Source of the DNA: Lachnospiraceae bacterium
Lineage (GTDB): Bacteria > Bacillota > Clostridia > Lachnospirales > Lachnospiraceae
Length of the DNA: 30,018 nucleotides
NCBI GenBank assembly: GCA_045595385.1
Contig: JAZOAJ010000245.1
Span: forward strand, 1 to 30,018
Direction of reading: 5' to 3'
Shown here piece after piece: positions 12,695 to 29,509 of this stretch. Position 1 is the stretch's first letter. Each line of letters opens with the position of its first letter. The translations under genes and the position numbers were made by a program. The notes beneath the pieces were generated by a model. It saw only the letters and a list, made by a program, of their open reading frames with translations. It ran no database searches and had not been told where the DNA came from.

Positions 12695-13087
12695 ATGATG
12701 TTCAGGAACACTTTAAAGAATATATTCAGCATTCTGCTGCTGATCTCAGGGATCGTGAGCGGCGCAATGATCTTTTTTGTTACCAGATCGCGCCTTTCGG
12801 CCGTGGCAAATTCCCATAAGATGATGCTCGCGGCAGATGTCCTGATGTTTATATATGCGCTTATCTATATAGTTTGCGGCCTTCTTGCCCTTTCAAGGAG
12901 CATACCGCGCAAGGTAGTGCGCGTAAGACCGTTTGTGCAGGTCGGGGTTTTTCTGGCAATAGCCTCTCTGATAATATCACTTGCCAACGGGATCTTAGTA
13001 AGTCACATCATCATCCTTGCGGTATGCGGTATCCTGATACCCCAGATCTTTTTCTTTATCATAGGTGCGATAATGGCGAGAAAATGA
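12695..13087 (+). CDS. Small integral membrane protein (about 4 TM helices), function unknown
   Basis: 130 aa with four hydrophobic segments separated by basic loops. It fills the gap between two minus-strand operons. Confidence 0.7.
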   Translation: MMFRNTLKNIFSILLLISGIVSGAMIFFVTRSRLSAVANSHKMMLAADVLMFIYALIYIVCGLLALSRSIPRKVVRVRPFVQVGVFLAIASLIISLANGILVSHIIILAVCGILIPQIFFFIIGAIMARK

Positions 13088-13104: not shown

Positions 13105-14406
13105 TCATTTATTCTGCTTTAACCTTTCAAGTTCTTCGAAGAATTGCGGATATGTCCGTTCAACGGCATCGGCCTGCTCCAGGATCACCCCTTTCCGGCA
13201 CATGCCTGCGGCCATTGTTCCCATCATGGCGAGCCGGTAATCACTGTGAGTTCCTACCCGTCCGCCGAAAAGCAGTTTTCCTCCGCTGCCGTCGATCAGG
13301 AGTCCGTCAGGCACCTCCGTTATCTGGGCTCCGAGTTCAGTCATCACCGCCGTAAGGGCCCTGACTCTGTCAGCGTCCATTCCGATACTGACAGGGTTTT
13401 TGATTATGCTCACTCCCTCCGCAGCGCTTGCCAGCAGCACAACGTGTGTCAGCAGGTCAGGGATGTCGGAAGCATCGATGTTCGTTCCCTTGAGATTTCC
13501 TCCGCTTACGGTTATGTCAGACCAGAATACAGGTTCTCCTTCTTCCCATGTATCAGTCTGCTCATGTTTTTTCTCTTCGGTTTTTGCGCCGAACAGTTCG
13601 AGTATCCTGAGGATCCGCCTGTCGCCCTGATGCGATGCTGTGTTCAGATCAGTGCATGTGACCGTACCGCCGCTGACAGCCGCTCCGGTCAGCCAGTACG
13701 CTGCCAGTTCCCAGTCGCCTTCTGTCGCAGGGATTTCCTTCATGTCGTACCGCTGGCCTCCGGGTATCCTGTAAACCCTGGCCAGGCCGTTCTGGTCCTT
13801 GAGCACCTCAATGCTGATGCCTGCCCTGCGCATCATGCTGATCGTCATGTCAACATACATCTCGGACTGGGGTTTCTTTTCCACCATGACAGCACTCTTC
13901 TCCTTGAGGAGCGGAAGGGCCATCAATAGTCCTGAAAGCGCCTGCCCGTCTGATACTCCCGGGAATATGTATGTTCCTGCGGTCAGCTGCCCCGTAACTT
14001 TAACAAGATCAGGCCTGATCTCATCCCTTTTGATCCCGTGAGTACGCAGAACACGGTAAAACTGGTCCATCGATGTAAATACCAGATTGCCCCTCAGGGC
14101 ATAGATGCAGGTTTTTCCGAACGCGCCTGCTATCGGGAGCATGAACTTGTATGTTGTATCACTTTCCCCGCATTCAAGCCTGTATACGAAATTCTCGTCC
14201 GAAACAGTTTCTTCTCCAAGCCCCAGAACACCCAGGCAGTTCCTGGTCACCTTGATGTCCTTTGAATCGTTTTTAAATTCAAATGCGGCCTCATTTCCTG
14301 AAAGGGCGCTGCATATCAGATATCTGTGAAGGAGCGATCCTGCCTGAGGGACTTTGATCGTTCCGTTTATGGGTTCATTTGATATTATCCTGGTGATCAG
14401 TCCCAC
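13105..14406 (-). CDS. AroA (EPSP synthase)-fold protein with a degenerate active site
   Basis: AroA scaffold motifs are present in order (CGES.TT, EGDW..AAYWL, QGD, DIPDL, DxR.AM, V.rTYP.FF), but many catalytic residues are substituted. GTG start with SD GAGGT. Confidence 0.8.
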   Translation of the reverse strand: MGLITRIISNEPINGTIKVPQAGSLLHRYLICSALSGNEAAFEFKNDSKDIKVTRNCLGVLGLGEETVSDENFVYRLECGESDTTYKFMLPIAGAFGKTCIYALRGNLVFTSMDQFYRVLRTHGIKRDEIRPDLVKVTGQLTAGTYIFPGVSDGQALSGLLMALPLLKEKSAVMVEKKPQSEMYVDMTISMMRRAGISIEVLKDQNGLARVYRIPGGQRYDMKEIPATEGDWELAAYWLTGAAVSGGTVTCTDLNTASHQGDRRILRILELFGAKTEEKKHEQTDTWEEGEPVFWSDITVSGGNLKGTNIDASDIPDLLTHVVLLASAAEGVSIIKNPVSIGMDADRVRALTAVMTELGAQITEVPDGLLIDGSGGKLLFGGRVGTHSDYRLAMMGTMAAGMCRKGVILEQADAVERTYPQFFEELERLKQNK

Positions 14407-14410
14407 GCTA

Positions 14411-14977
14411 TTACCTCTCCTTGCCCCAGCGTTTGTATCCTGTATAGTCTATGCCGAACTGATCGGATATCTTCCCGATCAGGAAATCGGTCATTTCAGA
14501 AGCTGTCTCCTGTCCGCTGTAAAATGTCATTACTGGCGGGATCACAACTGCGCCGCACTCTGCCAGCGTCAGCATGTTCCTCAGATGGATCCTGCTGAGC
14601 GGAGCTTCCCTCGGCACCACGACCAGCTTCCTGCACTCTTTTATGGTCACATCGGCTGCCCGCAGGAGAAGGTTTTCCGAAAAACCGTTAGCCACGCCGG
14701 CGAGAGTTTTCATGCTGCAGGGTATGATCACCATGCCGTCTGTCCTGAACGATCCGCTGGATATATCGGCAGCCATGTCATAAATATCATAATTTATGTC
14801 CGCCAATGCCCGGATCTCATCCGGATCCATGCCTGTTTCCTGTTCCATTGTAATAAGAGCGTTATCAGAAATAACCAGATGTGTTTCCACATCCGGTATC
14901 TCTTTGTATGCCGCAAGCAGATCTGCTCCAAGCCTGACCCCGCTGGCACCGCTTATTCCGACAATGATCTTTTTCAT
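14411..14977 (-). CDS. ubiX: Flavin prenyltransferase UbiX
   Basis: KIIVGISGASG, ETHLVIS, ISSGSF, PCSMKTL, RAADVTIKE, PREAP, PP.MTFY, RWG. Start placed at the ATG at 14977 (SD GGAG). Confidence 0.93.
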   Translation of the reverse strand: MKKIIVGISGASGVRLGADLLAAYKEIPDVETHLVISDNALITMEQETGMDPDEIRALADINYDIYDMAADISSGSFRTDGMVIIPCSMKTLAGVANGFSENLLLRAADVTIKECRKLVVVPREAPLSRIHLRNMLTLAECGAVVIPPVMTFYSGQETASEMTDFLIGKISDQFGIDYTGYKRWGKER

Positions 14978-14995
14978 GTCTTTCTCCGTCAATCC

Positions 14996-16300
14996 TCAGA
15001 TATCCTGAGCGGCAATATCCTCATACGTTTCTCTCCTTACAGCTACGTAGGAACTTCCTTCCTTGAGCATCACCACCGCAGGTCTCGGTATCCTGTTATA
15101 GTTTGAAGACATCGAATAGTTATATGCTCCTGTGGTACATACAGCTATGATGTCACCCTTTGCTGTAGAGGATGGCATTGGAACACCCAGCTGGATCAGG
15201 TCGCCGCTCTCACAGCAGCGTCCTCCGATGGTCACCTCCATGTCAGCCTCCTCATTCATCCTTGATGCATTATAACAGGAATATGAAGACTTATACAGTG
15301 CATATCTGGGATTATCTGTCATTCCGCCATCTATTGATACATAGTTTTTGTATCCTGGGATCCTTTTTACAGATCCGGCAGTATAAAGTGTCATTCCGGC
15401 ATCAGCAACTATGCTCCTTCCGGGCTCCATGTATATGACCGGAACAGGGATGTTAAGGCTTTGGCATTTTTCCTTTATCGCCCCGGCCACAGAGCCGATC
15501 TTTTCTGCTATGTCAAGGTAGGGGTCTGAATCAACATATCTGACTCCGTAGCCTCCTCCAAGGTTCAGACAGCCTGCCGGATATCCGAACTTTGTGTTCA
15601 TGTCCGCAATAAACTCCAGCATGACGTCTGAAGCTCTTTCAAAAACATCTTCTGCAAAGACCTGTGATCCGACATGGCAGTGGAACCCGGCAAGTTCAAT
15701 GTGCTCCTGCCTGAGGGCAAGGGCAGTTACCGCCTCCGCCTGTCCGGTGGCTATCGCCTGGCCGAACTTGGAATCCACTTTTCCGGTGCTGACAGCTTCA
15801 TATGTATGAGGGTCGATGCCGGGAGTTATCCTCAGCAGGATCTTCTGGATGATCCCTCTTGAAGCTGCCTCAGCCTCGATCGCAAGGATCTCCTCTTCGT
15901 TGTCGGCTACAAAGTATCCGACTCCTCTGTCCATTGCAAACTTTATGTCGGCATCTGTCTTGTTATTCCCGTGGAAGAATGCCTTCCCCATGTCCATGCC
16001 TGCCTCACTTGCAGTGTATACCTCTCCCGGAGATACGACGTCGCATCCCATGTTTTCAGAACTGATGATCCGGTATATCTGTTTGAAGCAGCATGCCTTT
16101 CCGGCGAACAGCGGCATCGAACCTTCAGGAAAATGCTCCCTGAAAGCATTTACATACGTCCGGCAGTTATGGCGTATCCTGTCCTCATCCATGAGATAAA
16201 GCGGTGTGCCGTACTGTCTTGCCAGGTCTTCCGTACTCTGGCCGGCAAATGTAAGATTGCCTTTTTCATTTACTGAGATATTTTCACAAACAAAGCTCAT
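14996..16300 (-). CDS. lysA: Diaminopimelate decarboxylase
   Basis: YGTPLYLMDE, AGKA (PLP lysine), HCHVGSQ, LNLGGG, EPGRS, CCESGD, GAYNYSMSSNYN. Confidence 0.96.
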   Translation of the reverse strand: MSFVCENISVNEKGNLTFAGQSTEDLARQYGTPLYLMDEDRIRHNCRTYVNAFREHFPEGSMPLFAGKACCFKQIYRIISSENMGCDVVSPGEVYTASEAGMDMGKAFFHGNNKTDADIKFAMDRGVGYFVADNEEEILAIEAEAASRGIIQKILLRITPGIDPHTYEAVSTGKVDSKFGQAIATGQAEAVTALALRQEHIELAGFHCHVGSQVFAEDVFERASDVMLEFIADMNTKFGYPAGCLNLGGGYGVRYVDSDPYLDIAEKIGSVAGAIKEKCQSLNIPVPVIYMEPGRSIVADAGMTLYTAGSVKRIPGYKNYVSIDGGMTDNPRYALYKSSYSCYNASRMNEEADMEVTIGGRCCESGDLIQLGVPMPSSTAKGDIIAVCTTGAYNYSMSSNYNRIPRPAVVMLKEGSSYVAVRRETYEDIAAQDI

Positions 16301-16318: not shown

Positions 16319-17296
16319 TTACAGCATGTGTGCCCTGAGTTCCTCTGCGCTCAGTGCTGAAAGATCTGCAGGCGCGATATCGAACATTGTCTTGCATCCG
16401 GTGATGCCTCTTGAGTTCATCTTATATGCTGCTCTTGCAAGAGAAACGAGCACTCCCGAGGTGAACTCCGGATTTGAATCCAGAGTGAGCCTGTATTCTA
16501 TGGTATGGGAATGTTCATTGTTCAGACCGGTCTTTCCTGTACATATGACTACTCCGCCGTGAGGGAGCTCGCTGTGCTCTGCCTTCATCTCCTCAGCGGT
16601 AATGAATGTGACTGTTGTGTCATAGTCCGCGAAGTAGTTCGGCATTGTCTTGATGGCTTCCTCGATGGCAGCCTTGTCTGCGCCTTCTTCGGCAACAACA
16701 TAGCATTCACGCAGATGCATCTGCCTTGCGGTCAGGCCGCCTGCCTCTCCTTTGCGGGCAAGCTCCACAGCTTCCTGAATGGGAACTGTATACTGTCTTG
16801 CGTCAAGGACTCCCGGTATCCTTCTGATGGCATCTGAATGGCCCTGGCTCACTCCCCTGCCCCAGAATGTCGCAAATGATCCTTGAGGAAGTATGCATGA
16901 CGCATAGATCCTGCTTATTGAGAACATTCCCGGATCCCAGCCGCCTGAAATTACCGCGACGTGTCCGTTCTCTGAAGCGCTCCTGTCAACATTTGCGAAA
17001 TGCTCAGGGATGCGTGCATGTGTGTCAAAGCTGTCCACAACATTGAATATCCTTGCAAGCTCCGGTGTGAGGACCGGAAGATCTGTTGCCGATCCGCCCG
17101 CGATGATCATCACGTCAATGTCGTCCTTGAACTCAGCCACATCTGAAGCACTGTAAACCGGTACTCCTGTGCGTGTCTTTACTGAAGCGGGGTCACGACG
17201 TGTAAATACCGCGACCAGTTCTATGTCGGGGTTCTGTGTGACTGCAGCCTCAACGCCGCGTCCGATGTTCCCGTATCCGAATAATCCTAATCTCAT
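16319..17296 (-). CDS. ddh: meso-Diaminopimelate D-dehydrogenase
   Basis: GYGNIGR, VDSFDTHA, GWDPG, WGRGVSQGHSDAIR, SNPEFT. Confidence 0.95.
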   Translation of the reverse strand: MRLGLFGYGNIGRGVEAAVTQNPDIELVAVFTRRDPASVKTRTGVPVYSASDVAEFKDDIDVMIIAGGSATDLPVLTPELARIFNVVDSFDTHARIPEHFANVDRSASENGHVAVISGGWDPGMFSISRIYASCILPQGSFATFWGRGVSQGHSDAIRRIPGVLDARQYTVPIQEAVELARKGEAGGLTARQMHLRECYVVAEEGADKAAIEEAIKTMPNYFADYDTTVTFITAEEMKAEHSELPHGGVVICTGKTGLNNEHSHTIEYRLTLDSNPEFTSGVLVSLARAAYKMNSRGITGCKTMFDIAPADLSALSAEELRAHML

Positions 17297-17322: not shown

Positions 17323-18072
17323 TCAGTCAGCGACGAGGCATTTCATGTCATAGAGGCCCGGTCCCTTATCCTGAAGGAAAGCCGCTGCTGACAGCGCGCC
17401 TTCCGCAAACAGGGCTCTGCTGTGTGCTTCGTGCTTAAGTGTGATCGTCTGGTTTGCAGTGCCTATCATGACCTCATGCATGCCGACTATGTTTCCCATC
17501 CTTATGCTCTGGATGCCTATCTCGTTCGGAAGACGTTTTCCGTGTCCTGTCCTTCCCGTAGTGATCTCGGCATCTGTCCTTACGCTCTTTATCTCTTCAG
17601 CAAGGGTAAGGGCTGTTCCGCTCGGTGCGTCGATCTTGCGGTTATGATGTGCTTCGATGATCTCGATCTCCGCATCAGGCATTGCAGCAGCAGCTTTTTT
17701 AGCCAGTTCAACGAGCAGCGCTACTCCCAGTGAGTAGTTGGACGCAAAGAATACCGGTATGGTCTTCGCTGCGTCAGATATCATCTGTTTTTCCTCATCC
17801 GTCTGGCCTGTGGTAGCTATTATCAGAGGGATCTTATGCGATACCGCAAATGCTGTCAGTTCGGCTGTTGCGGCATGATGGGAAAAGTCTATGATGCAGT
17901 CAGCATCTGCCTGGACATCTGCAAATGACGTAACAACAGGAACGTCAAAGCCGTCATCTGCCGCATTCACGTCAACTCCGCCTGCAAGGACTGCGCCCCT
18001 CATTCCGGCTCTCACGAGTTTTTCAACTTCGCGGCCCATGGCGCCAAGTATTCCGCTTATTAAAACTCTCAT
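17323..18072 (-). CDS. dapB: 4-hydroxy-tetrahydrodipicolinate reductase
   Basis: G..GAMG, IDFS, ATTG, SNYSLG, IEAHHNRKIDAPSGTA, FAEGA. Start placed at 18072 behind SD GGAGGGG. Confidence 0.96.
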   Translation of the reverse strand: MRVLISGILGAMGREVEKLVRAGMRGAVLAGGVDVNAADDGFDVPVVTSFADVQADADCIIDFSHHAATAELTAFAVSHKIPLIIATTGQTDEEKQMISDAAKTIPVFFASNYSLGVALLVELAKKAAAAMPDAEIEIIEAHHNRKIDAPSGTALTLAEEIKSVRTDAEITTGRTGHGKRLPNEIGIQSIRMGNIVGMHEVMIGTANQTITLKHEAHSRALFAEGALSAAAFLQDKGPGLYDMKCLVAD

Positions 18073-18086
18073 TTTCCCCTCCGGCA

Positions 18087-18977
18087 TTATTTGATCAGGT
18101 TCCATTTGCGCATCTCGGCGAAGAGCTTCTCCTGATGTTCGGGCTCCATCTCTGTGAGCGGCAGACGCAGGAAGTTCTCACACCATCCCATTGCTGCCAT
18201 TGCTGCTTTAACAGGGATCGGATTGACTTCGCAGAACAGAGCCTTGATGATCGGCATGAAATCAGCCTGCATCTTAGCTGCTCCGGCAATGTCTCCGGCG
18301 AAGAACTTGTCGCAGAGTTCGACGGTCTGTTTCGGCATGATATTTGAAAGAACTGAGATTATCCCGAGTCCGCCCATTGACATGATCGGAACTATCTGGT
18401 CATCATTTCCGGAATAGATATCCAGTTTGTCGCCGACAAGTGATACTGTCTCAACGATCTTTGAGATATTGCTGTTGGCTTCCTTGATGGCACGGATGTT
18501 GCCATGGTCTGCAAGCTTTGCGTATGTGGCAGGTTCAATGCTAACGCCTGTTCTTGAAGGGACGTTGTAAACAACAACCGGTATGGTGATGGCGTCAGCT
18601 ATGGAGCTGTACATTTTTACGAGTCCGTTCTGGGTTGCCTTGTTGTAGTAAGGTGTTACCACGAGGACTCCGTCAGCACCTGCTGAGCAGGCGAATCTTG
18701 AAAGCTCAAGAGCATAGTCGGTCTCGTTTGATCCGGTTCCTGCTATGCACGGTACTCTTCCGTTTATGCATTCAACTGCATAGGCTATGACTTTCTTATG
18801 CTCGGCATCGGTAAGTGTTGAGCTCTCACCTGTGGTCCCGCAGATGACGAGGCCGTTGATACCTTCATCGATCTGCCAGTCGATAAGACGGCGGAGTTTG
18901 TCATAATCCACGCCTGTTGAATTTGTAGGTGTGATGAGTGCTGTTGCTGCTCCCTTGAAGATAGGATTGTCTGTCAT
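18087..18977 (-). CDS. dapA: 4-hydroxy-tetrahydrodipicolinate synthase
   Basis: GTTGESSTL, AGTGSN, PYYNK, YNVPSRTG, IKEA, YSGND, NPIPVK. Start placed at 18977 behind SD GGAGG. Confidence 0.97.
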   Translation of the reverse strand: MTDNPIFKGAATALITPTNSTGVDYDKLRRLIDWQIDEGINGLVICGTTGESSTLTDAEHKKVIAYAVECINGRVPCIAGTGSNETDYALELSRFACSAGADGVLVVTPYYNKATQNGLVKMYSSIADAITIPVVVYNVPSRTGVSIEPATYAKLADHGNIRAIKEANSNISKIVETVSLVGDKLDIYSGNDDQIVPIMSMGGLGIISVLSNIMPKQTVELCDKFFAGDIAGAAKMQADFMPIIKALFCEVNPIPVKAAMAAMGWCENFLRLPLTEMEPEHQEKLFAEMRKWNLIK

Positions 18978-19029
18978 TGTTTGTTTTCCTCCTGAAATCA
19001 GATTATTTTTCATCTATTGCAATCGGGAA

Positions 19030-19068: not shown

Positions 19069-19116
19069 CAATCGGACTAATGAGTATTATGACTGTGTCA
19101 TAAAATTCCAATCAAT

Positions 19117-19278
19117 ACATAGCTCTCCGCAAAATGCGACAGTCACGCGGATCTTATCCGCATGCCCAGGAAAAGCCTGCAATCTCTTTTCCTTCGGCGG
19201 CGGCCCCTTTCCTATCAGCAACGGCCCTGCCCGGCCTCTTGCACTGGTGCTACTAATGGCAACCGCATCCTCTATCCT
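19117..19278 (-). ncRNA. Lysine riboswitch (L-box)
   Basis: Minus strand reads ATAGAGGATGCGG...GAAAGGGG..CGCCGAAG...CTGGGCATGCGGATAAGATCCGCGTGACTGTC...GGAGAGCTAT, the L-box consensus blocks in order, directly upstream of dapA. Confidence 0.92.
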
Positions 19279-19340
19279 TTAATTGCAATATTTGATTTTG
19301 TATACTATACACCTATGTCAGGTGAACAATCAAGCCTTTT

Positions 19341-20024
19341 TTAAATGATCTTCTGCCATACGAGCACAATGAGTACGAGCGAAGCAAATACAACTATTGA
19401 AGCAATGATCACAGGGACCGTTATGTTCCGCCCCTTTGCAGCCCCTGAGCTGCTGCTCTGGGGTAAAAGCCTTGCCTTTCTCAGCGCTGTCACTATAGGC
19501 TTATAAAGAAGTACCGTAAGCGCTGCGTTCATGCCTCCCTTGATCAGGTTGAACGGCAGGAATACCGGTATCAGCAGCCCAACGACCACTTCCCTGGGAG
19601 TACCCATGTATAACGGGGTGATCAGCCAGTTCCAGAGTATCATGATCGCTGTCATGCACAGAACGCCCGTAATGAGGCCTATAAGGGCGCCGGAGAACTT
19701 TTTCCTTGTCTTGTAGATGACTGCCGCCGGAACCACAAATGCGCAGGTGGACAGCACGTTCATCAGGAATCCTATCCATGCGGTACTGCTTATGGTTATC
19801 ATCTCAATAAATGATACTATTACAGATACTATGACTGCCGGGAGCGGGCCGAACATGAAGCCGCATATGGCGATCACTACATCCTTGAAGTCAAAGCTCA
19901 AAAAGCCCATGACATTTACAGGTATGAGCTTTGACAATGCCATTACCGCATAGCTGATCGCGCAGAACATGCCGATCATTACTATCTCTCTTACACCGAA
20001 TCTCTGTTTTGTTGTTGTTTCCAT
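19341..20024 (-). CDS. ribU: ECF transporter S component, probably riboflavin-specific (RibU)
   Basis: Multi-TM protein with FLSFDFKDV...GFMFGP, N..ITPLYMG and PFNLIKG motifs, lying under an FMN riboswitch. Start at 20024 (SD AAAGGA). Confidence 0.85.
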   Translation of the reverse strand: METTTKQRFGVREIVMIGMFCAISYAVMALSKLIPVNVMGFLSFDFKDVVIAICGFMFGPLPAVIVSVIVSFIEMITISSTAWIGFLMNVLSTCAFVVPAAVIYKTRKKFSGALIGLITGVLCMTAIMILWNWLITPLYMGTPREVVVGLLIPVFLPFNLIKGGMNAALTVLLYKPIVTALRKARLLPQSSSSGAAKGRNITVPVIIASIVVFASLVLIVLVWQKII

Positions 20025-20081
20025 GATGTTCTTTCCTTTCAAATGTTTTATTTAATCTGTTTGGAAAGACATGCTTTAATG

Positions 20082-20108: not shown

Positions 20109-20131
20109 ATGCATTTAAAGAAAAGCCATTC

Positions 20132-20243
20132 TTGTCTCTCTCATCCGGACTATGACCGTCGGTTCAGGAATCTCACCTGATCAACCCCTTAGGGCTCGCA
20201 GACTTTACTGCCGGTGGGGAATCTCACCCCGCCCCGAAACAGA
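20132..20243 (-). ncRNA. FMN riboswitch (RFN element)
   Basis: Minus strand reads TTCGGGGCGGGGTGAGATTCCCCACCGGCAGTAAAGTCTGCGAGCC...GATCAGGTGAGATTCCTGAACCGACGGTCATAGTCCGGATGAGAGAGA. Confidence 0.96.
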
Positions 20244-20258
20244 TTATATATTGATGGT

Positions 20259-20364: not shown

Positions 20365-23300
20365 TCACTCTTCTGTTTCAGTTACTTCCTCTACAGCTTC
20401 AGTGATCTCATCACCTGCTTCTTCGGCGATCTCTTCGGTTTCAGTCTCTTCAGCTGCAATGGTTTCTTCCTCAACAGCTGCGAGGATGGCATTTTCCTCT
20501 TCTTTCTTCTTCGCGATCATCTCATCTGTGTTGAGTCTGACACCGCGGTAGAGTTTCATTCCTGTACCTGCAGGTATGAGCTTACCTATGATGACGTTCT
20601 CCTTAAGTCCGATGAGCGGATCGACCTTGCCGTTGATGGCAGCTTCGGTAAGAACCTTTGTGGTCTCCTGGAATGATGCTGCTGACATGAATGACTCGGT
20701 TGCAAGAGAAGCCTTTGTGATACCCATAACGATCCTCTTGCCGACAGCCGGCTCCTTGCCTTCCGCAATGAGTTTCTTGTTCACGCGCTCAAATTCGAAT
20801 ACGTTCTCAACGGTACCCGGAAGGAACTGTGAATCGCCTGCCTCTTCGATACGGATCTTTCTGAGCATCTGGCGGATAATGACCTCGATGTGCTTATCGT
20901 TGATCTCAACACCCTGCAGTCTGTAAGGGATCTGGACTTCCTTCATGATGTAATCCTGGCATGCATTTACATCAAGTATCCTGATGATGTCATGAGGATT
21001 GATATTTCCTTCGGTTATCCTCTCGCCGCGCTCAATATGGACTGTCTGGCCCTCGTCATTTGCGACCATGATCTTCTTGGCGATCTTTGATCCGTAAGGG
21101 ATGAGGTATGCTTTCTCCTTGCCTTCGCCGTCTACAACAACTACTTCTGTCTTGTTCTTTGACTCGCGTACTTCAGCCTCACCGTCAAATTCGGAGATTA
21201 TTGCAACACCCTTAGGCTTTCTTGCTTCGAAAAGCTCTTCTACACGGGGAAGACCCTGTGTGATGTCTCCGCCGGCAACACCACCGGTGTGGAATGTTCT
21301 CATTGTAAGCTGTGTACCGGGCTCACCGATGGACTGTGCAGCTATGATACCGACTGCCTCACCGATCTGAACAGGCTGTCCTGTAGCCATGTTCGCACCA
21401 TAGCATCTTGAGCAGATACCGTTCTCGCTCCTGCATGTAAGGATCGTACGGATCCTGACTCTCTCGATCCCTGCTGCAACGATCGCTTCAGCTCTTGAAG
21501 GAGTGATCATGCAGTTCTTTCTTACTATGACATTGCCGTTCTCATCAGCGATGTCCTCGGCAGCGTATCTGCCGACGATCCTCTCCTCAAGGCTCTCGAT
21601 GACTTCCTTGTCTTCATTGAAAGCATGTACTTCCATGTACGGGATCTCATCACTGTCACTGGTATCCATGCAGTCAACCTGGTTGATGATGAGCTCCTGG
21701 CTGACGTCAACAAGCCTACGGGTAAGGTATCCCGAGTCAGCTGTACGAAGAGCTGTATCGGACAGACCCTTACGTGCGCCGTGAGCTGAAATGAAGTATT
21801 CCAGAACGTCAAGACCTTCACGGAAGTTTGACTTGATCGGAAGTTCGATCGCTCGTCCTGTTGTATCCGCCATCAGACCACGCATGCCTGCGAGCTGCTT
21901 GATCTGCTGCTCGGAACCACGGGCACCGGAGTCAGCCATCATGTAAATGTTGTTGTATTTGTCAAGTGAAGACATAAGCTCTTCAGCTATCTTCTTATCG
22001 GCTGCGTCCCAGATATTGATGATCTGTCTGTAACGCTCATCCTCGGTTGCAAGACCCATACGGTATGCGCTCTGGATAGTCTCAACATCTTCCTCGGCCT
22101 GCTTGATGATCTCCTGCTTTTTCTCAGGAACTGTCATGTCTGAGATGGATACTGTAAACGCTGCTTTGGTCGAATATTTGTAACCCATGCTCTTAATGTT
22201 GTCAAGAACCTCTGACGTAACTGTAGCGCCGTGGATGTTGATGACTTTCTCAAGGATCTTCTTGAGGTCTTTCTTCTTAACAAGTTTGTCGACTTCCAGC
22301 TTGAGATAGTCTTCATCCTTCTCCCTCTTTACAAATCCGAGATCCTGAGGGATCACTTCGTTAAAGAGTACGCGTCCGAGTGAAGTATCGATAACACCCC
22401 TTACAGTCCTGCCGTCGGGGAGAGTTCTCTCCATACGGACCTTGATCTTGCTGTGAAGAGTGATGATGTTGCTGTCATAAGCAAATATTGCTTCGTTTAC
22501 ATCCTTGAAAGCCTTGCCTTCGCCGGGCTCGCCGTCTCTCTGCTGTGTCAGATAATAGATACCAAGTACCATGTCCTGTGAAGGAACGGCAACAGGTGCT
22601 CCGTCTGACGGCTTGAGCAGGTTGTTCGGTGACAGGAGCATGAACCTGCACTCAGCCTGGGCCTCTACGCTCAGAGGAAGGTGTGCAGCCATCTGGTCAC
22701 CGTCAAAGTCGGCATTGAATGCTGTACATACAAGAGGATGGAGCTTGATCGCACGTCCCTCGACCAGTACCGGCTCGAATGCCTGGATACCAAGTCTGTG
22801 AAGAGTAGGTGCACGGTTGAGCATTACAGGATGCTCCTTGATAACCTCCTCAAGTACGTCCCAGACCTCGGTCTGGAGTTTCTCAACCATCTTCTTGGCG
22901 GCTTTGATGTTGTTTGCCTTTTCATAATCGACCAGTTTCTTCATGACGAACGGTTTGAAGAGCTCAACGGCCATCTCTTTGGGAAGACCGCACTGGTAGA
23001 TCTTAAGTTCGGGACCGACAACTATAACTGAACGTCCTGAATAGTCAACACGCTTTCCGAGGAGGTTCTGTCTGAAACGTCCCTGCTTGCCTTTGAGCAT
23101 GTCTGAAAGAGATTTGAGGGATCTTCCTGCAGGTCCTGTTACCGGACGTCCGCGGCGGCCGTTGTCGATAAGGGCATCGACAGCCTCCTGGAGCATTCTC
23201 TTCTCGTTTCTGACGATTATCTCAGGCGCGCCCATTTCAAGAAGACGGGCAAGTCTGTTATTTCTGTTTATGATCCTTCTGTAAAGGTCATTAAGGTCGG

Positions 23301-24090
23301 ATGTGGCAAATCTGCCGCCATCCAGCTGAACCATCGGTCTGAGATCGGGCGGAATGACAGGGATGACCTTAAGGATCATCCATTCAGGCTTGTTTCCGCT
23401 GTTCCTGAAAGCTTCAACAACTTCCAGTCTCTTGACGATCTTTGCCCTCTTCTGTCCTGTGGAACCTGCAAGTCCTTCCCTGAGTTCAGCAGCGAGCTGA
23501 TCCAGGTCGATAGATGAAAGCAGTTCATCTATTGCCTCTGCACCCATTCCGACACGGAGAGTAGAGATCACGCCTTCATTTCTTTCCTTTGCCTCACCAT
23601 ATTCCTTCTCTGTGAGAACCTGCTTGTATTCAAGATCGGTCTCGCCGGGATCAAGGACTATGTAGCTTGCAAAATACAGGACTTTCTCAAGTGTCTTGGG
23701 TGACAGATCGAGGATCAGACCCATTCTTGAAGGTATGCCTTTAAAATACCAGATGTGTGATACGGGAGCGGCAAGCTCGATGCTTCCCATCCTCTCACGG
23801 CGGACTGAAGCCTTTGTAACTTCAACTCCGCATCTATCGCAGATGATGCCCTTATATCTGATCTTTTTATATTTGCCGCAGTGACATTCCCAGTCCTTGC
23901 TCGGTCCGAAGATCCTTTCGCAGAAAAGGCCGTCCTTTTCAGGCTTGAGGGTTCTGTAGTTAATCGTTTCCGGCTTTGTAACTTCACCGTATGACCATTC
24001 CCTGATAGTCTCGGGGCTTGCAAGTCCGATCCTGATCTTGTCAAATGTCATAGGCTCATAGTTTTCATTTACCACGCTGCGCTGTGCCAT
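20365..24090 (-). CDS. rpoC: RNA polymerase beta' subunit
   Basis: CECGK-type N-terminal Zn cysteines (CHCGK..CDRC), NADFDGD catalytic loop, [18 protein letters not shown]. The start could be 24096 or 24090. Confidence 0.99.
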
Positions 24091-24107
24091 AACCATTCTC
24101 CCTCCTT

Positions 24108-27100
24108 TTAAAACTCATCATCGAAATCGTCGGTGAACATCTTGTCTGATGTGTAATCATCATCAATATAATCATCGTCTTTTTCGTCATCTACATACTC
24201 AAGCTCGCCGCCCGCGAATTCCTGTACCGAGAATCCATGCGCAGCATAGTTCTCCTTCTCCCTCGGATGGCTGTTATGAGCAAGCATTGCATTAAAGTTA
24301 GTCTCGCCGTAGTCAACTGACTCAAGAAGTTTAACCTCCGTATTGTCCTCGCTCAGCACTCTGATGTCCAGAGCAAGTGACTGGAGTTCCTTGACGAGCA
24401 CCTTGAATGACTCGGGTGTTCCTGCCTCAGGAATGTTCTCGCCCTTGATGATAGCCTCGTAAGTCTTAACACGTCCTACGACATCATCAGACTTGACTGT
24501 GAGCACTTCCTGAAGTGTGTAGGAAGCGCCGTAGGCCTCAAGAGCCCAGACTTCCATCTCTCCGAATCTCTGTCCGCCGAACTGGGCTTTTCCTCCCAGA
24601 GGCTGCTGTGTGACCAGAGAGTAAGGACCTGTTGAACGTGCATGGATCTTGTCATCAACAAGATGATGCAGCTTCAGGTAATGCATGAATCCGATCGTTA
24701 CAGGAGAGTCGAAGAATTCTCCTGTACGGCCGTCTCTGAGCTGTACACGTCCGTCAGCATTGAAAGGAACGCCTTTCCACTCTGCCCTGTGATCAAGATG
24801 ATCTTCAAGATACTGCATGATGTCAGGGTTGAGCGTCTTCTTATATTTAGCTTTGAAATCATCCCATTCACCGTTGACGTAATCATTTGCCATGGCAAGA
24901 TTGTCGACGATGTCTTTCTCGTTTGCTCCTCCGAATACCGGTGTTGAGATGTTGAATCCCAGCGCAGTAGCCGCCAGAGACAGATGTGTCTCAAGTACCT
25001 GTCCGATATTCATACGTGAAGGAACGCCGAGCGGGTTAAGCACGATGTCGAGCGGACGTCCGTTAGGAAGATAAGGCATGTCTTCCACAGGAAGGACTCT
25101 CGATACAACACCCTTGTTTCCATGACGTCCTGCCATCTTGTCACCAACAGAGAGTTTTCTCTTCTGGGCGATGTATACGCGTACTGTCTGGTTAACGCCG
25201 GGGCTCAGCTCGTCGCCTTCTTCTCTTAAGAAGACCTTTGTGTCAACAACTATTCCGTATGCTCCGTGAGGGACTCTGAGTGAAGTATCCCTTACTTCCC
25301 TTGCCTTCTCACCGAAGATCGCACGAAGGAGCCTCTCTTCAGGAGTAAGCTCTGTCTCTCCCTTAGGTGTGACTTTTCCTACCAGGATGTCACCTGCACG
25401 GACCTCAGCGCCGATGCGGATGATACCGCGCTCGTCAAGATCCTTGAGGGCTTCGTCGCCGACGCCCGGTACGTCTCTGGTGATCTCTTCCGGTCCGAGC
25501 TTGGTGTCACGGGACTCGGTCTCATATCTCTCAATGTGGATCGATGTATATACATCATCCATGACGAGGCGCTCGCTGATAAGGACAGCATCCTCGTAGT
25601 TGTAGCCTTCCCAGGTCATGAATCCGATGAGCGGATTCTTGCCGAGAGCGAGCTCTCCGTTATTAGTAGAAGCGCCGTCAGCTATTACCTGTCCTGCTTC
25701 AACTCTCTCGCCTTTTTCAACTATCGGTCGCTGGTTGTAGCAGTTGCTCTGGTTAGACCTTGCGAATTTAGCGATCTTATATGTCTCATATATGCCGGCG
25801 TCATTTCTGATGCCGATCTCTGTAGCAGTTACTCTCTCAACAATACCGCCGGTCTTGGCAAGTACGCAGACGCCTGAGTCCTTTGCAGCCTTTTCTTCCA
25901 TTCCGGTACCGATGACAGGAGCCTCGGTTGTAAGGAGCGGAACTGCCTGACGCTGCATGTTGGATCCCATGAGGGCACGGTTCGCGTCGTCGTTCTCAAG
26001 GAACGGGATCATTCCTGTCGCTGCAGAGAATACCATCATAGGTGAAACGTCCATGAGATCGATCTCTGTCTTGTCGTACTCGGATGTGTCATCTTTGTAA
26101 CGGCCTGCAACCGTGTTCCTGATGAAATGTCCTTCTTCGTCAAGGAGTGAGTTTGCCTGCGCGACTTTGTAGTTATCTTCCACATCAGCTGTAATGTAAA
26201 CGACCTGGTCGGTAACGCGCGGGTTCTCAGGATCACTCTTGTCAACAACCCTGTAAGGAGCCTCGATAAATCCGTACTTGTTCACACGGGCATATGAAGC
26301 CAGTGAGTTGATAAGACCGATGTTGGGACCTTCAGGTGTCTCAACAGGACACATTCTTCCGTAATGAGTATAGTGAACGTCTCGGACCTCAAATCCTGCA
26401 CGGTCTCTTGACAGACCGCCGGGTCCAAGTGCTGAAAGACGTCTCTTATGTGTAAGCTCGCTGAGCGGGGTGCACTGGTCCATGAACTGTGACAGCTGTG
26501 AAGATCCGAAGAACTCACGGACAGCAGCGGTCACGGGTTTGATGTTGATCAGGGACTGGGGAGTGATGCTCTCAATGTCCTGTGTCTGCATTCTCTCATG
26601 GACAACTCTTTCCATCCTGGAAAGTCCGACTCTGTACTGATTCTGGAGAAGTTCTCCGACGCTTCTGATACGGCGGTTTCCGAGGTGGTCGATATCGTCG
26701 AAGTTTCCGAGGCCTGAATCAAGGTTCAGTCCGTATGAAATGCTCGCGAAAATGTCTTCCTTGGTTATGTGCTTAGGAACGAGTTCGTGAATGTTCTTTT
26801 TGATCGCTTCGATCCTGTCAGTTTTCTTGCTGTAGTCCTCAAGGATCGGTTTGAGCGCAGGCCAGTAGACCTCATCCTCGATGATGCCGAACTCCTTCTT
26901 TTCCTCATCCTTCAGTTTGATGAACTCATCAATATTTACCATAAGGTTGGAAAGGACCTTCACGCCCCTGCCTTCTTTTGCGATGAGTACATACGGAGCC
27001 GCACCGTTCTGGATCTTCTCGCAGAGTTCTGCGGTAACCTCAGTTCCTGCGGGAGCGATGAGTTCTCCTGATGTCTGGTCGATAACGTCCTCGGCAAGAG

Positions 27101-27977
27101 TCTCGCCGATGATCCTGTTGCTGTATGCAAGCTTCTTGTTGAATTTGTAACGGCCTACTCTTGCAAGATCATATCTCTTGCTGTCAAAGAACATTGATGT
27201 GATCAGGTTCTCGGCATTCTCAACCTGAAGAGGCTCGCCCGGACGGAGTTTCTTGTACAGTTCAAGAAGTCCTTCCTTATAATTCTTGGACGGATCCTTC
27301 TCAAAGCATGCTAGAAGCTTCGGCTCTTCGCCGAACATCTCGATTATCTCCTCATTGGTGCCTACTCCGAGTGCACGGATGAGTACTGTAACAGGAACTT
27401 TCCTTGCCTTGTCAGCGTGAACATAGTAGACATCGTTCGAATCTGTCTCATATTCAAACCATGCGCCCCTGTTCGGGATTACATTGCATGCGTACAGTTC
27501 TTTACCGAACTTATCATGGCTGAGAGTGAAGTAGATACCGGGTGATCTTACGAGCTGGGAAACGATTACACGCTCAGCTCCGTTGATCACGAAAGTACCT
27601 GTTTCAGTCATCAGGGGCAGGTCGCCCATGAAGATCTCATGCTCGCTTATCTCTCCGGTTTCCTTATTATTAAGACGTACGGTGACCTTAAGGGGAGTTG
27701 CGTATGTGGCGTCCCTCTCCTTACATTCATCAATAGTGTACTTAATGTCTTCGTAAGCAACCTTGTAATCGACAAATTCAAGGCTGAGATTTCCATCATA
27801 GTCTTCGATGGGGGAAATATCATTGAAGACCTCCCTGAGGCCGTCTGTGATAAACCAATCATACGAGGCTTTCTGGATTTCGATCAGATTCGGCATTTCC
27901 AGGACGTTTTCCTGCGTGGAAAAACTCATTCTGGTGTTCTTGCCGCTCTTCACAGGATGCATTCTGTTTATCTCCAT
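24108..27977 (-). CDS. rpoB: RNA polymerase beta subunit
   Basis: [40 protein letters not shown]. Start placed at the ATG at 27977 behind SD AAGGAG. Confidence 0.99.
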
Positions 27978-28166
27978 TAAAGTCACTCCTTATGCTGTAT
28001 TTTATCTGCAGAAAAAACAACCGTCTCTCAGTTTATCCAAATGTTGCAGATTTCCGGTGACGGTTTTTTTCCTTTCAAATAATTATGGATTTTTGTGAAA
28101 AAACATGATAAACTATCCACGCAATTCGAAAGTTAGTGCATATTTTTCCACAGTAAAGCACATTAC

Positions 28167-29313: not shown

Positions 29314-29357
29314 GTCTCTCCTCCTTTGTAGTATTTATTTTCTGCCGCATGAGGATT

Positions 29358-29461
29358 AAAAAACCCTCCCGCCAAAAGACGGGAGGGTCCTGTTGAACTC
29401 TCTTGAATCTCCTCGGTAGGTTGTTATACGTTACGCCCTGGGGCACCTACTGTCTTCGGCA
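29358..29461 (-). ncRNA. L10 leader (ribosomal protein autoregulatory element) with attenuator
   Basis: GCCGAAGACAGTAGGT...ACCTACCGAGG core, then terminator ACCCTCCCG-tcttttgg-CGGGAGGGT-TTTTT, upstream of rplJ. Confidence 0.85.
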
Positions 29462-29509
29462 AATGAAAATCTAACATATTAAGTTGTCAATGTCAACCTT
29501 GTATTAAGA

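Follow-up and report, generated by a model that had tools for sequence, protein, structure and literature searches.

An AroA-fold protein with an eroded active site at the end of a lysine-riboswitch operon in ruminant-gut Lachnospiraceae

EPSP synthase (EPSPS, or 5-enolpyruvylshikimate-3-phosphate synthase; AroA, EC 2.5.1.19) is the target of glyphosate and ranks among the best-studied enzymes. It is a monomer and, to our knowledge, has been treated as strictly monofunctional. MurA, the UDP-GlcNAc enolpyruvyl transferase, belongs to the same fold superfamily. No noncatalytic or neofunctional EPSPS paralog was described in the full-text literature that we searched, a limited library. A parallel from another family is the trypanosome S-adenosylmethionine decarboxylase (AdoMetDC) prozyme, a dead copy of a metabolic enzyme that is kept by selection beside an active copy and that is reported to activate this paralog as a heterodimer (PMC5201418).

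Here we describe AroA' (P0001), a protein encoded in a 30,018-nucleotide stretch of DNA from a Lachnospiraceae bacterium (the window; contig JAZOAJ010000245.1 of assembly GCA_045595385.1). The source genome, G000, is a metagenome-assembled genome of 2.23 Mb that is 86.5% complete, and the public sequencing runs in which AroA' occurs come for the most part from sheep and bovine gut metagenomes. As read from the sequence, the gene is the last one of a lysine-riboswitch operon. We favor, with somewhat better than even confidence, the explanation that AroA' descends from the resident aroA and is catalytically dead yet maintained by selection, a protein which probably acts through a remodeled ligand half-site or a new interface and would be expressed together with the lysine operon. 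An earlier note on this DNA, made from the letters alone, had described an intact frame of 433 codons with a proper ribosome-binding site, and both were borne out. The open reading frame (ORF) is unbroken and starts with the GTG at 14404-14406 on the minus strand, 4 nucleotides (nt) past the TAA stop codon of the preceding gene, ubiX (14411-14413).

13105..14406, minus strand: AroA' (P0001) coding sequence, from the ORF and its translation; 433 amino acids (aa), GTG start, EPSP-synthase fold, eroded active site
14414..14420, minus strand: Shine-Dalgarno sequence GGAGAGG, read from the sequence, 7 nt upstream of the AroA' GTG

The fold and the active site of AroA'

The family models placed AroA' within the EPSPS fold but outside the aroA equivalog. 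PF00275 matched AroA' at 1.5e-50, covering residues 11-426 and model positions 5-417 of 417. The score against the aroA equivalog model TIGR01356 was 207.9 bits, below the cut-off of 287.25, and the score against the murA model TIGR01072 was far under its cut-off (35.7 versus 392.7 bits). The alignment that the earlier note had proposed thus found the fold complete but the equivalog threshold missed. An AlphaFold2 model built with 13 family members as input had a mean predicted local distance difference test score (pLDDT) of 89.6 and a predicted template modeling (TM) score of 0.90. When this model was searched with Foldseek, the top 50 matches were all EPSPS except for one designed hydrolase, with TM scores of 0.81-0.84 and 24-26% identity to EPSPS chains (8UMN, 1G6S type). 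Since the model is confident and its structural matches are almost all EPSPS, the fold of AroA' is fully kept; like the E. coli (1G6S) and plant (8UMN) enzymes, it is a two-domain inside-out alpha/beta-barrel over its whole length. A protein-atlas feature search returned generic EPSP-synthase clusters only. The model had a TM score of 0.84 to liganded EPSPS as opposed to 0.52-0.59 to open forms; this closed look, for which no canonical AroA was modeled as a control, was not used to argue for a permanently closed protein.

The active site was compared with E. coli AroA from NC_000913 in MAFFT alignments with AroA' and its relatives, and E. coli numbering is used below. Twelve positions (K22, R27, R124, S169, S170, Q171, D313, K340, E341, R344, R386, and K411) act in substrate binding or catalysis in the published E. 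coli structures. In AroA', 7 of these 12 are changed (K22G, R124T, S169D, S170G, K340 deleted, E341D, and K411R), and G96D, R100K, and H385Y are added to them. Every motif change listed by eye in the earlier note was reproduced in this way, as were the residues it had reported as retained (R27, Q171, D313, R344, D384, and R386). S197, Y200, and D242 are kept as well. AroA' thus resembles EPSP synthase in R27, Q171, S197, Y200, D242, D313, and D384 and differs from it in the absence of K22, G96, R124, S169, S170, K340, E341, H385, and K411, in a 19-residue hairpin, and in its place in a lysine operon. The altered sites, which include parts of the shikimate 3-phosphate (S3P) site, are as follows; "clade" refers to clade A, that is, AroA' and its close relatives.

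14335..14349, minus strand: PQAGS, formerly the PGSKS loop; K22 replaced by G, R27 kept six residues on
14146..14169, minus strand: GESDTTYK, formerly the G-N/E-x-G-T-x-x-R helix cap; G96 replaced by D, residue 84 of AroA'; R100 replaced by a clade-invariant K
14068..14079, minus strand: FTSM, formerly KERP; R124 replaced by T at a clade-variable position (T/V/S/D/N)
13942..13950, minus strand: DGQ, formerly SSQ, the S3P phosphate site; D153 and Q155 of AroA' invariant, residue G154 in 92% of clade members
13855..13866, minus strand: SEMY; S197 and Y200 of the S3P site kept and invariant, the adjoining basic residue replaced by an invariant Glu
13522..13578, minus strand: acidic beta-hairpin insertion of 19 residues (277-295), clade specific and confidently modeled
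13366..13386, minus strand: IGMDADR, formerly R-x-K-E-S/T-D-R; K340 deleted, E341 replaced by D, highly variable in the clade
13234..13245, minus strand: SDYR, formerly NDHR; H385 replaced by Y
13147..13161, minus strand: ERTYP, formerly xKS/TFP; K411 replaced by R at a clade-variable position

The acidic insertion (EEKKHEQTDTWEEGEPVFW), which had also been noticed earlier, was found only in clade A.

Such a degree of change is rare among AroA proteins. About 100 diverse homologs retrieved by a word-index search, including archaeal and fusion proteins, had no more than a single change (0-1) at 12 core positions. All 13 core residues were unchanged in 146 of the 148 nearest 50%-cluster representatives, which were the best matches when 1.84 billion proteins were searched with a profile; AroA' has 7-8 such changes, with eight of the 13 residues altered. 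As judged from these alignments, the change in the active site is far beyond chance or ordinary divergence. A hand tally from the alignment gives a drop in net charge at the core cleft positions, from about +6 to about +1, which would make the cleft a poor fit for two polyanionic substrates.

The fully kept fold and the public annotation of the clade A member P0014 as a 3-phosphoshikimate 1-carboxyvinyltransferase would be compatible with a very divergent EPSP synthase that still works. Bacterial, archaeal, and fusion proteins show no variation at K22, R124, S169/S170, K340, E341, and K411, residues that are replaced or deleted in AroA', and the genome also has a canonical aroA within a full aro operon (see below). 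Annotated in this way, such genes would be miscounted when pathways are reconstructed or when the glyphosate sensitivity of gut and rumen microbiomes is predicted from sequence.

At least four independent erosions of a resident aroA

We found three genes of the EPSPS fold in G000: AroA', a murA on contig C274 (563 bits against TIGR01072), and a third gene on contig C117. The C117 gene is the second, canonical aroA that the earlier note had suggested looking for, so that AroA' is not the sole aroA of its genome. It lies at L001:1468-2700, is canonical at all 23 positions checked, is flanked by aroB, aroC, a fused aroE/aroK, and aroG (DAHP synthase), and shares 26% identity with AroA', whose own context is a dap/lys operon and not a shikimate operon. 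The C117 aroA scored 275 bits on TIGR01356, just under the cut-off of 287 despite its canonical key residues, which indicates that this cut-off misses its clade. The aroB-aroC-aroE/aroK(fused)-aroA-DAHP synthase operon is compact, spanning about 12200-17700 of C117 (locus L001, 13943-18112).

Since AroA' falls short in its equivalog score, in the family's invariant residues, and in its pathway context, we do not file it as an EPSP synthase. It is a clear homolog of an enzyme family that lacks the family's invariant residues and, as described below, is under purifying selection. Operationally it may be called a pseudoenzyme or, less likely, a neofunctionalized enzyme. The earlier view that it is probably not a working EPSP synthase is supported by the lost key residues, the missed equivalog cut-off, and the coexisting canonical aroA, and we infer from its residues that AroA' has no parental EPSPS activity.

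To place AroA', we compared 34 species genomes of the window's own GTDB genus. Their aroA-like genes fall into a locus-type clade, a related type found in aroC-aroA-aroB operons (T3), and a distant type (A2). The locus-type clade has 100% support in the Shimodaira-Hasegawa-like approximate likelihood ratio test (SH-aLRT) and adjoins a 130-aa membrane ORF, gltA, and rarA. It includes canonical genes in G164, G168, and G195 and, with alanine at position 96 (G96A), in G157, G162, G169, and G173. Nested among them are the degenerate groups: clade A, clade B (G152, G153, G163, G166, and G192), clade D (P0017/P0140, from G158 and G160) with P0127 and P0129, and P0125. All degenerate groups sit at the same syntenic locus. 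AroA' is thus a positional and phylogenetic descendant of canonical aroA and a resident gene of a ruminant-gut Lachnospiraceae genus. A search of 150 other genera in this family turned up no clade-A-like gene and only canonical aroA, at 30-40% identity. Clade A itself is a tight group, with homologs at 49-94% identity to AroA', and forms one single cluster in a 50%-clustered protein library.

The nearest relatives of AroA' are the canonical sisters at the locus (G164, G168, and G195; e.g., P0123 and P0016), with 40-45% identity (36-45% for all canonical locus copies). They share with AroA' the fully supported clade and the place beside the 130-aa membrane ORF, gltA, and rarA. Unlike AroA', they keep all 23 key residues, and each is usually the sole aroA of its genome. 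The G164 gene lies at L025:1474-2739 on the minus strand. Clade B, clade D, P0125, P0127, and P0129 have the locus, the ancestor, the eroded site, the intact frames, and the second canonical aroA in common with AroA'; they differ from it in their independent origins, in their sets of substitutions, and in their insertions.

A single origin of all degenerate forms was rejected. The approximately unbiased (AU) test ruled against one clade of all degenerate genes (p = 0.0012, with groups named after inspection of the tree), and parsimony on a larger tree gave four transitions from canonical to degenerate. For clades A and D, a shared origin was not rejected on a smaller set of taxa (p = 0.76); once more taxa were included, the two fell into different sub-clades. 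Erosion of the locus-type aroA has therefore occurred independently at least four times. A second canonical aroA, of type A2 or T3, was found in 11 of the 12 genus genomes with a degenerate copy, the exception being G161, which is 78% complete. Conversely, a canonical locus-type gene is the only aroA in 6 of the 7 genomes that carry one. Under the simplest history, the presence of a second aroA made the resident copy redundant, and that copy was then either lost or survived in eroded form. One genus accordingly offers a natural series, from canonical gene alone through canonical gene with a second aroA (G157) to copies that appear dead but selected, at least four times over, and to outright loss. 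With this series, the birth of a pseudoenzyme and moonlighting by its parent enzyme become directly testable.

Several features of the related loci were recorded along the way. G157 (L032/L053, L068) carries a canonical locus-type aroA with G96A together with a long-branched, residue-canonical A2 copy and may represent the redundant stage that precedes erosion. Alanine at the G96 position occurs in the canonical locus-type aroA of G157, G162, G169, and G173 (L028, L032-L034); according to the title of PDB entry 1MI4, this substitution renders E. coli EPSPS insensitive to glyphosate. In L077, L078, and L010 (clade D), L091 (P0127), L093 (P0129), and L090 (P0125), 6-11 core residues are replaced and large insertions are present (up to 497 aa). 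The clade D, P0127, P0129, and P0125 genes sit between clpB and rarA-DUF5717-DUF5716 in related Lachnospiraceae.

AroA' is not decaying. Pairwise Nei-Gojobori estimates of the ratio of nonsynonymous to synonymous substitution rates (dN/dS) for the pair G000/G170 were 0.048 for AroA' (dS 0.79), 0.053 for lysA, 0.063 for ubiX, 0.061 for the true aroA (aroA2), and 0.017 for gltA. In clades B and D they were 0.014-0.11 (about 0.07 for clade D), and pairs of canonical aroA gave 0.06-0.22. Judged by these ratios, purifying selection acts on AroA' no less strongly than on real enzymes. A pseudogene in decay could be suspected from the outright loss of the gene in some relatives. The frames are intact in at least 13 clade A members, down to about 50% identity, and the dN/dS of 0.048 is like that of neighboring enzymes. 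That AroA' is either a still-working EPSP synthase or such a pseudogene is therefore, in our estimate, highly improbable. The relatives at 49-94% identity all lack R100, R124, S169/S170, and K340, so that the homologs share substitutions, as the earlier note had asked; its two signs of a decaying gene, missing conserved homologs and a dN/dS near 1, were both absent.

Conservation within clade A and the possible role of AroA'

The pattern of conservation was read from 13 clade A members, the most distant of which are about 50% identical to AroA'. On the former S3P side, R27, D169, Q171, S197, Y200, D242, D384, and K100 are invariant, some of them in altered form, and G170 is nearly so. Positions on the former phosphoenolpyruvate (PEP) side and catalytic positions (22, 94, 96, 124, 336, 341, 344, 386, and 411) drift. 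Invariants specific to clade A include the acidic replacements E176 and E182 near the old phosphate site and also surface positions; around the hairpin, W295 and D297 are invariant, and H281 and D285 nearly so. The deepest clade A member, P0014 (genome G197), is changed only at R100, R124, S169/S170, and K340 and still has K22, D313, E341, R344, H385, R386, and K411. To judge from the published E. coli complexes, the four changed sites make up chiefly the two phosphate sites. Positions 100, 124, 170, and 340 were also changed independently in clade B.

This pattern suggests that the two-substrate chemistry was lost and that a remodeled single-ligand pocket was kept, suited to a nonphosphorylated ligand with a carboxylate. 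As there is variation in the PEP-side residues within clade A itself, the evidence leans to a noncatalytic or ligand-binding role over a new enolpyruvyl transferase. It thereby upholds the earlier suggestion of a different substrate or a ligand-binding or regulatory role, with the weight on the latter part.

A neofunctionalized enzyme, which would run another reaction in the remodeled cleft, is a rather unlikely reading. Its substrate might be a nonphosphorylated acid resembling shikimate, chorismate, or hydroxybenzoate, or else an amino acid from lysine biosynthesis. The strong purifying selection and the predicted cotranscription with metabolic genes fit such an enzyme, as does the earliest-branching P0014/G197, which changed mainly at the two phosphate sites; the independent changes of clade B at 100, 124, 170, and 340 look directional rather than random. 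Enzymes, however, normally fix residues of the kind that vary in clade A, where position 22 is G/S/D/A/K, 341 is D/G/S/E, 344 is R/V/L/Q, 386 is R/H/K/N, and 411 is R/K/S/N/I. Moreover, the lysine pathway has no missing step for AroA' to fill, since dapA, dapB, ddh, and lysA are all there.

AroA' could also be a pure scaffold or protein-binding pseudoenzyme with an irrelevant cleft. The selected interface would then possibly be hairpin 277-295, and the role might descend from moonlighting of the locus-type EPSPS. Apparently dead copies were kept independently at least four times and, among the 148 nearest representatives, in this aroA lineage only, which is what subfunctionalization of a bifunctional ancestor predicts. 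The clade-specific surface positions and the insertion (W295 and D297) are invariant, and each of the degenerate clades carries an insertion of its own at this hairpin. These insertions, however, are nonhomologous between clades and absent from the canonical sisters G164, G168, and G195, which argues against one shared ancestral interface at this site. With no partner found and with neighbors that differ among the clades, we hold this reading, too, to be rather unlikely.

The explanation that we favor, a selected and catalytically dead descendant of resident aroA, can be put as a sequence of steps. Once a second, distantly related aroA was present in a compact aro operon, the resident gene would have become redundant. 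Both phosphate-binding sub-sites would have been lost first, followed by most PEP-side and catalytic residues, while a folded, full-length protein was retained under purifying selection. AroA' would no longer carry out enolpyruvyl transfer and would act noncatalytically through the retained, remodeled half of the old S3P site. In this half-site R27 would receive a carboxylate, Q171, S197, and Y200 are kept, and Asp-Gly takes the place of the phosphate-binding Ser-Ser. A single ligand with a carboxylate and no phosphate may be bound there, and the signal may be relayed by domain closure or by the new conserved hairpin. AroA' would be made under lysine scarcity.

A more far-reaching version is possible, although we consider it doubtful. 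The aroA lineage of this locus may carry a second, noncatalytic function, such as metabolite sensing or protein interaction, which is kept whenever a second aroA makes catalysis redundant. In clade A it would operate through the remodeled S3P half-site, for a carboxylate ligand with a cationic or neutral group in the place of the phosphate. Such an ancestral second function would explain at least four independent dead-but-conserved derivatives in one genus. Lysine or diaminopimelate is conceivable as the ligand, given the lysine-riboswitch operon. If this version is true, EPSP synthase would moonlight and would have given rise to a new family of sensors for small molecules. The AdoMetDC prozyme introduced above resembles AroA' as a seemingly dead copy held by selection beside an active one; the likeness ends there, as nothing suggests a complex of AroA' with the active aroA, and the type of the active partner differs by clade (A2 versus T3).

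Several observations weigh against the favored explanation. The argument for ligand binding comes from the conservation pattern, and the invariant D169/S197/Y200/R27 cluster could have a structural role only, such as that of a salt bridge keeping the two domains closed. Neighbors differ by clade, with gltA in clade B and clpB/rarA in clade D, and context thus points to no partner. AroA' is also dispensable in some relatives. Six further genomes carry an A2 aroA alone, and in the sister species G154 (L082, G154:C144:2219-5764) ddh-lysA-ubiX is followed by the convergent membrane ORF and gltA, with AroA' cleanly absent, so that this locus is a natural knock-out. The dN/dS values come from pairs with dS in the range of 0.3-1.6 and not from codon likelihood models. 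Finally, the two runs labeled RNA-Seq are probably DNA, and they cover the operon only in patches.

The lysine operon, ubiX, and the neighboring genes

The operon that ends in AroA' has the order dapA-dapB-ddh-lysA-ubiX-AroA', with intergenic gaps of -19 to 26 nt and no convincing terminator between its genes. The order lysA-(ubiX)-AroA' recurs in 8 related contigs, including that of the deep member P0015.

19112..19282, minus strand: lysine riboswitch (Rfam RF00168, 82.6 bits, E = 2.1e-20), heading the six-gene operon that ends in AroA'
18087-19013, minus strand: dapA, lysine biosynthesis, same operon
17323-18105, minus strand: dapB, lysine biosynthesis, same operon
16319-17296, minus strand: ddh, lysine biosynthesis, same operon
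14996-16300, minus strand: lysA, lysine biosynthesis, same operon
14411..14992, minus strand: ubiX, flavin prenyltransferase (NF004685, 238.6 bits, above the cut-off of 188), directly upstream of AroA'
12695..13087, plus strand: convergent, predicted membrane ORF of 130 aa, very hydrophobic, with no family match; 17-nt gap to the 3' end of AroA'

The close spacing of ubiX and AroA' raises the question of an accessory role in the UbiX/UbiD system for decarboxylation with prenylated flavin mononucleotide (prenyl-FMN). The two genes are separated by 3-5 nt or overlap in G000, G170, L012, P0015, and G197, across about 50% divergence of AroA', and in G000, at its 86.5% completeness, no ubiD was found. 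The same genome yielded no CoaC/Dfp-type flavoprotein, ubiX being its only PF02441 match. Of the 6 genomes of the genus that carry ubiX, however, 5 encode UbiD at other loci, and the nearest relative, G170, has three copies. G154 keeps lysA-ubiX and three UbiD genes and has lost AroA', and G159 keeps lysA-AroA' with neither ubiX nor ubiD. Across genomes the presence of AroA' did not follow that of ubiX or ubiD, and the UbiD neighborhoods hold LysR, esterase, and amidohydrolase genes and no AroA-like gene. Since each of ubiX and AroA' has been lost without the other, the link fails, and we regard an accessory role as very unlikely. The idea of an orphan UbiX served by AroA' was rejected on the same reciprocal losses and on genus-wide searches. 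A prediction of an AroA'-UbiX complex scored 0.00, which is evidence neither way.

Placement of ubiX under a lysine riboswitch is itself curious, as there is no obvious reason for the supply of prenyl-FMN to track lysine levels. In G197 (L101, G197:C5:3500-17000), genes for a LysR regulator, a UbiD-family decarboxylase, and a putative esterase form a group, and an Amidohydro_2 protein is encoded close by; the arrangement resembles a locus for the decarboxylation of plant phenolic acids that is served by a distant ubiX.

In many relatives the 130-aa membrane ORF (31-93% identity) is kept beside aroA of both the canonical and the degenerate kind, and in G164 its 3' end overlaps aroA. A functional link of AroA' to this ORF or to rarA-DUF5717-DUF5716 was considered and rejected. 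Both flank canonical and degenerate copies alike, which indicates synteny and not a specific link.

Two further RNA elements were found in the window. An FMN riboswitch (20129-20245, minus strand; 108 bits) lies directly upstream of the S component of an energy-coupling factor (ECF) transporter (19341-20042, minus strand), which is probably a riboflavin importer; the lysine-riboswitch operon with its FMN-using ubiX comes next. The rpoB/rpoC region (ORFs 20365-27986) is preceded upstream by a ribosomal protein L10 leader (29349-29477, minus strand; 76.5 bits).

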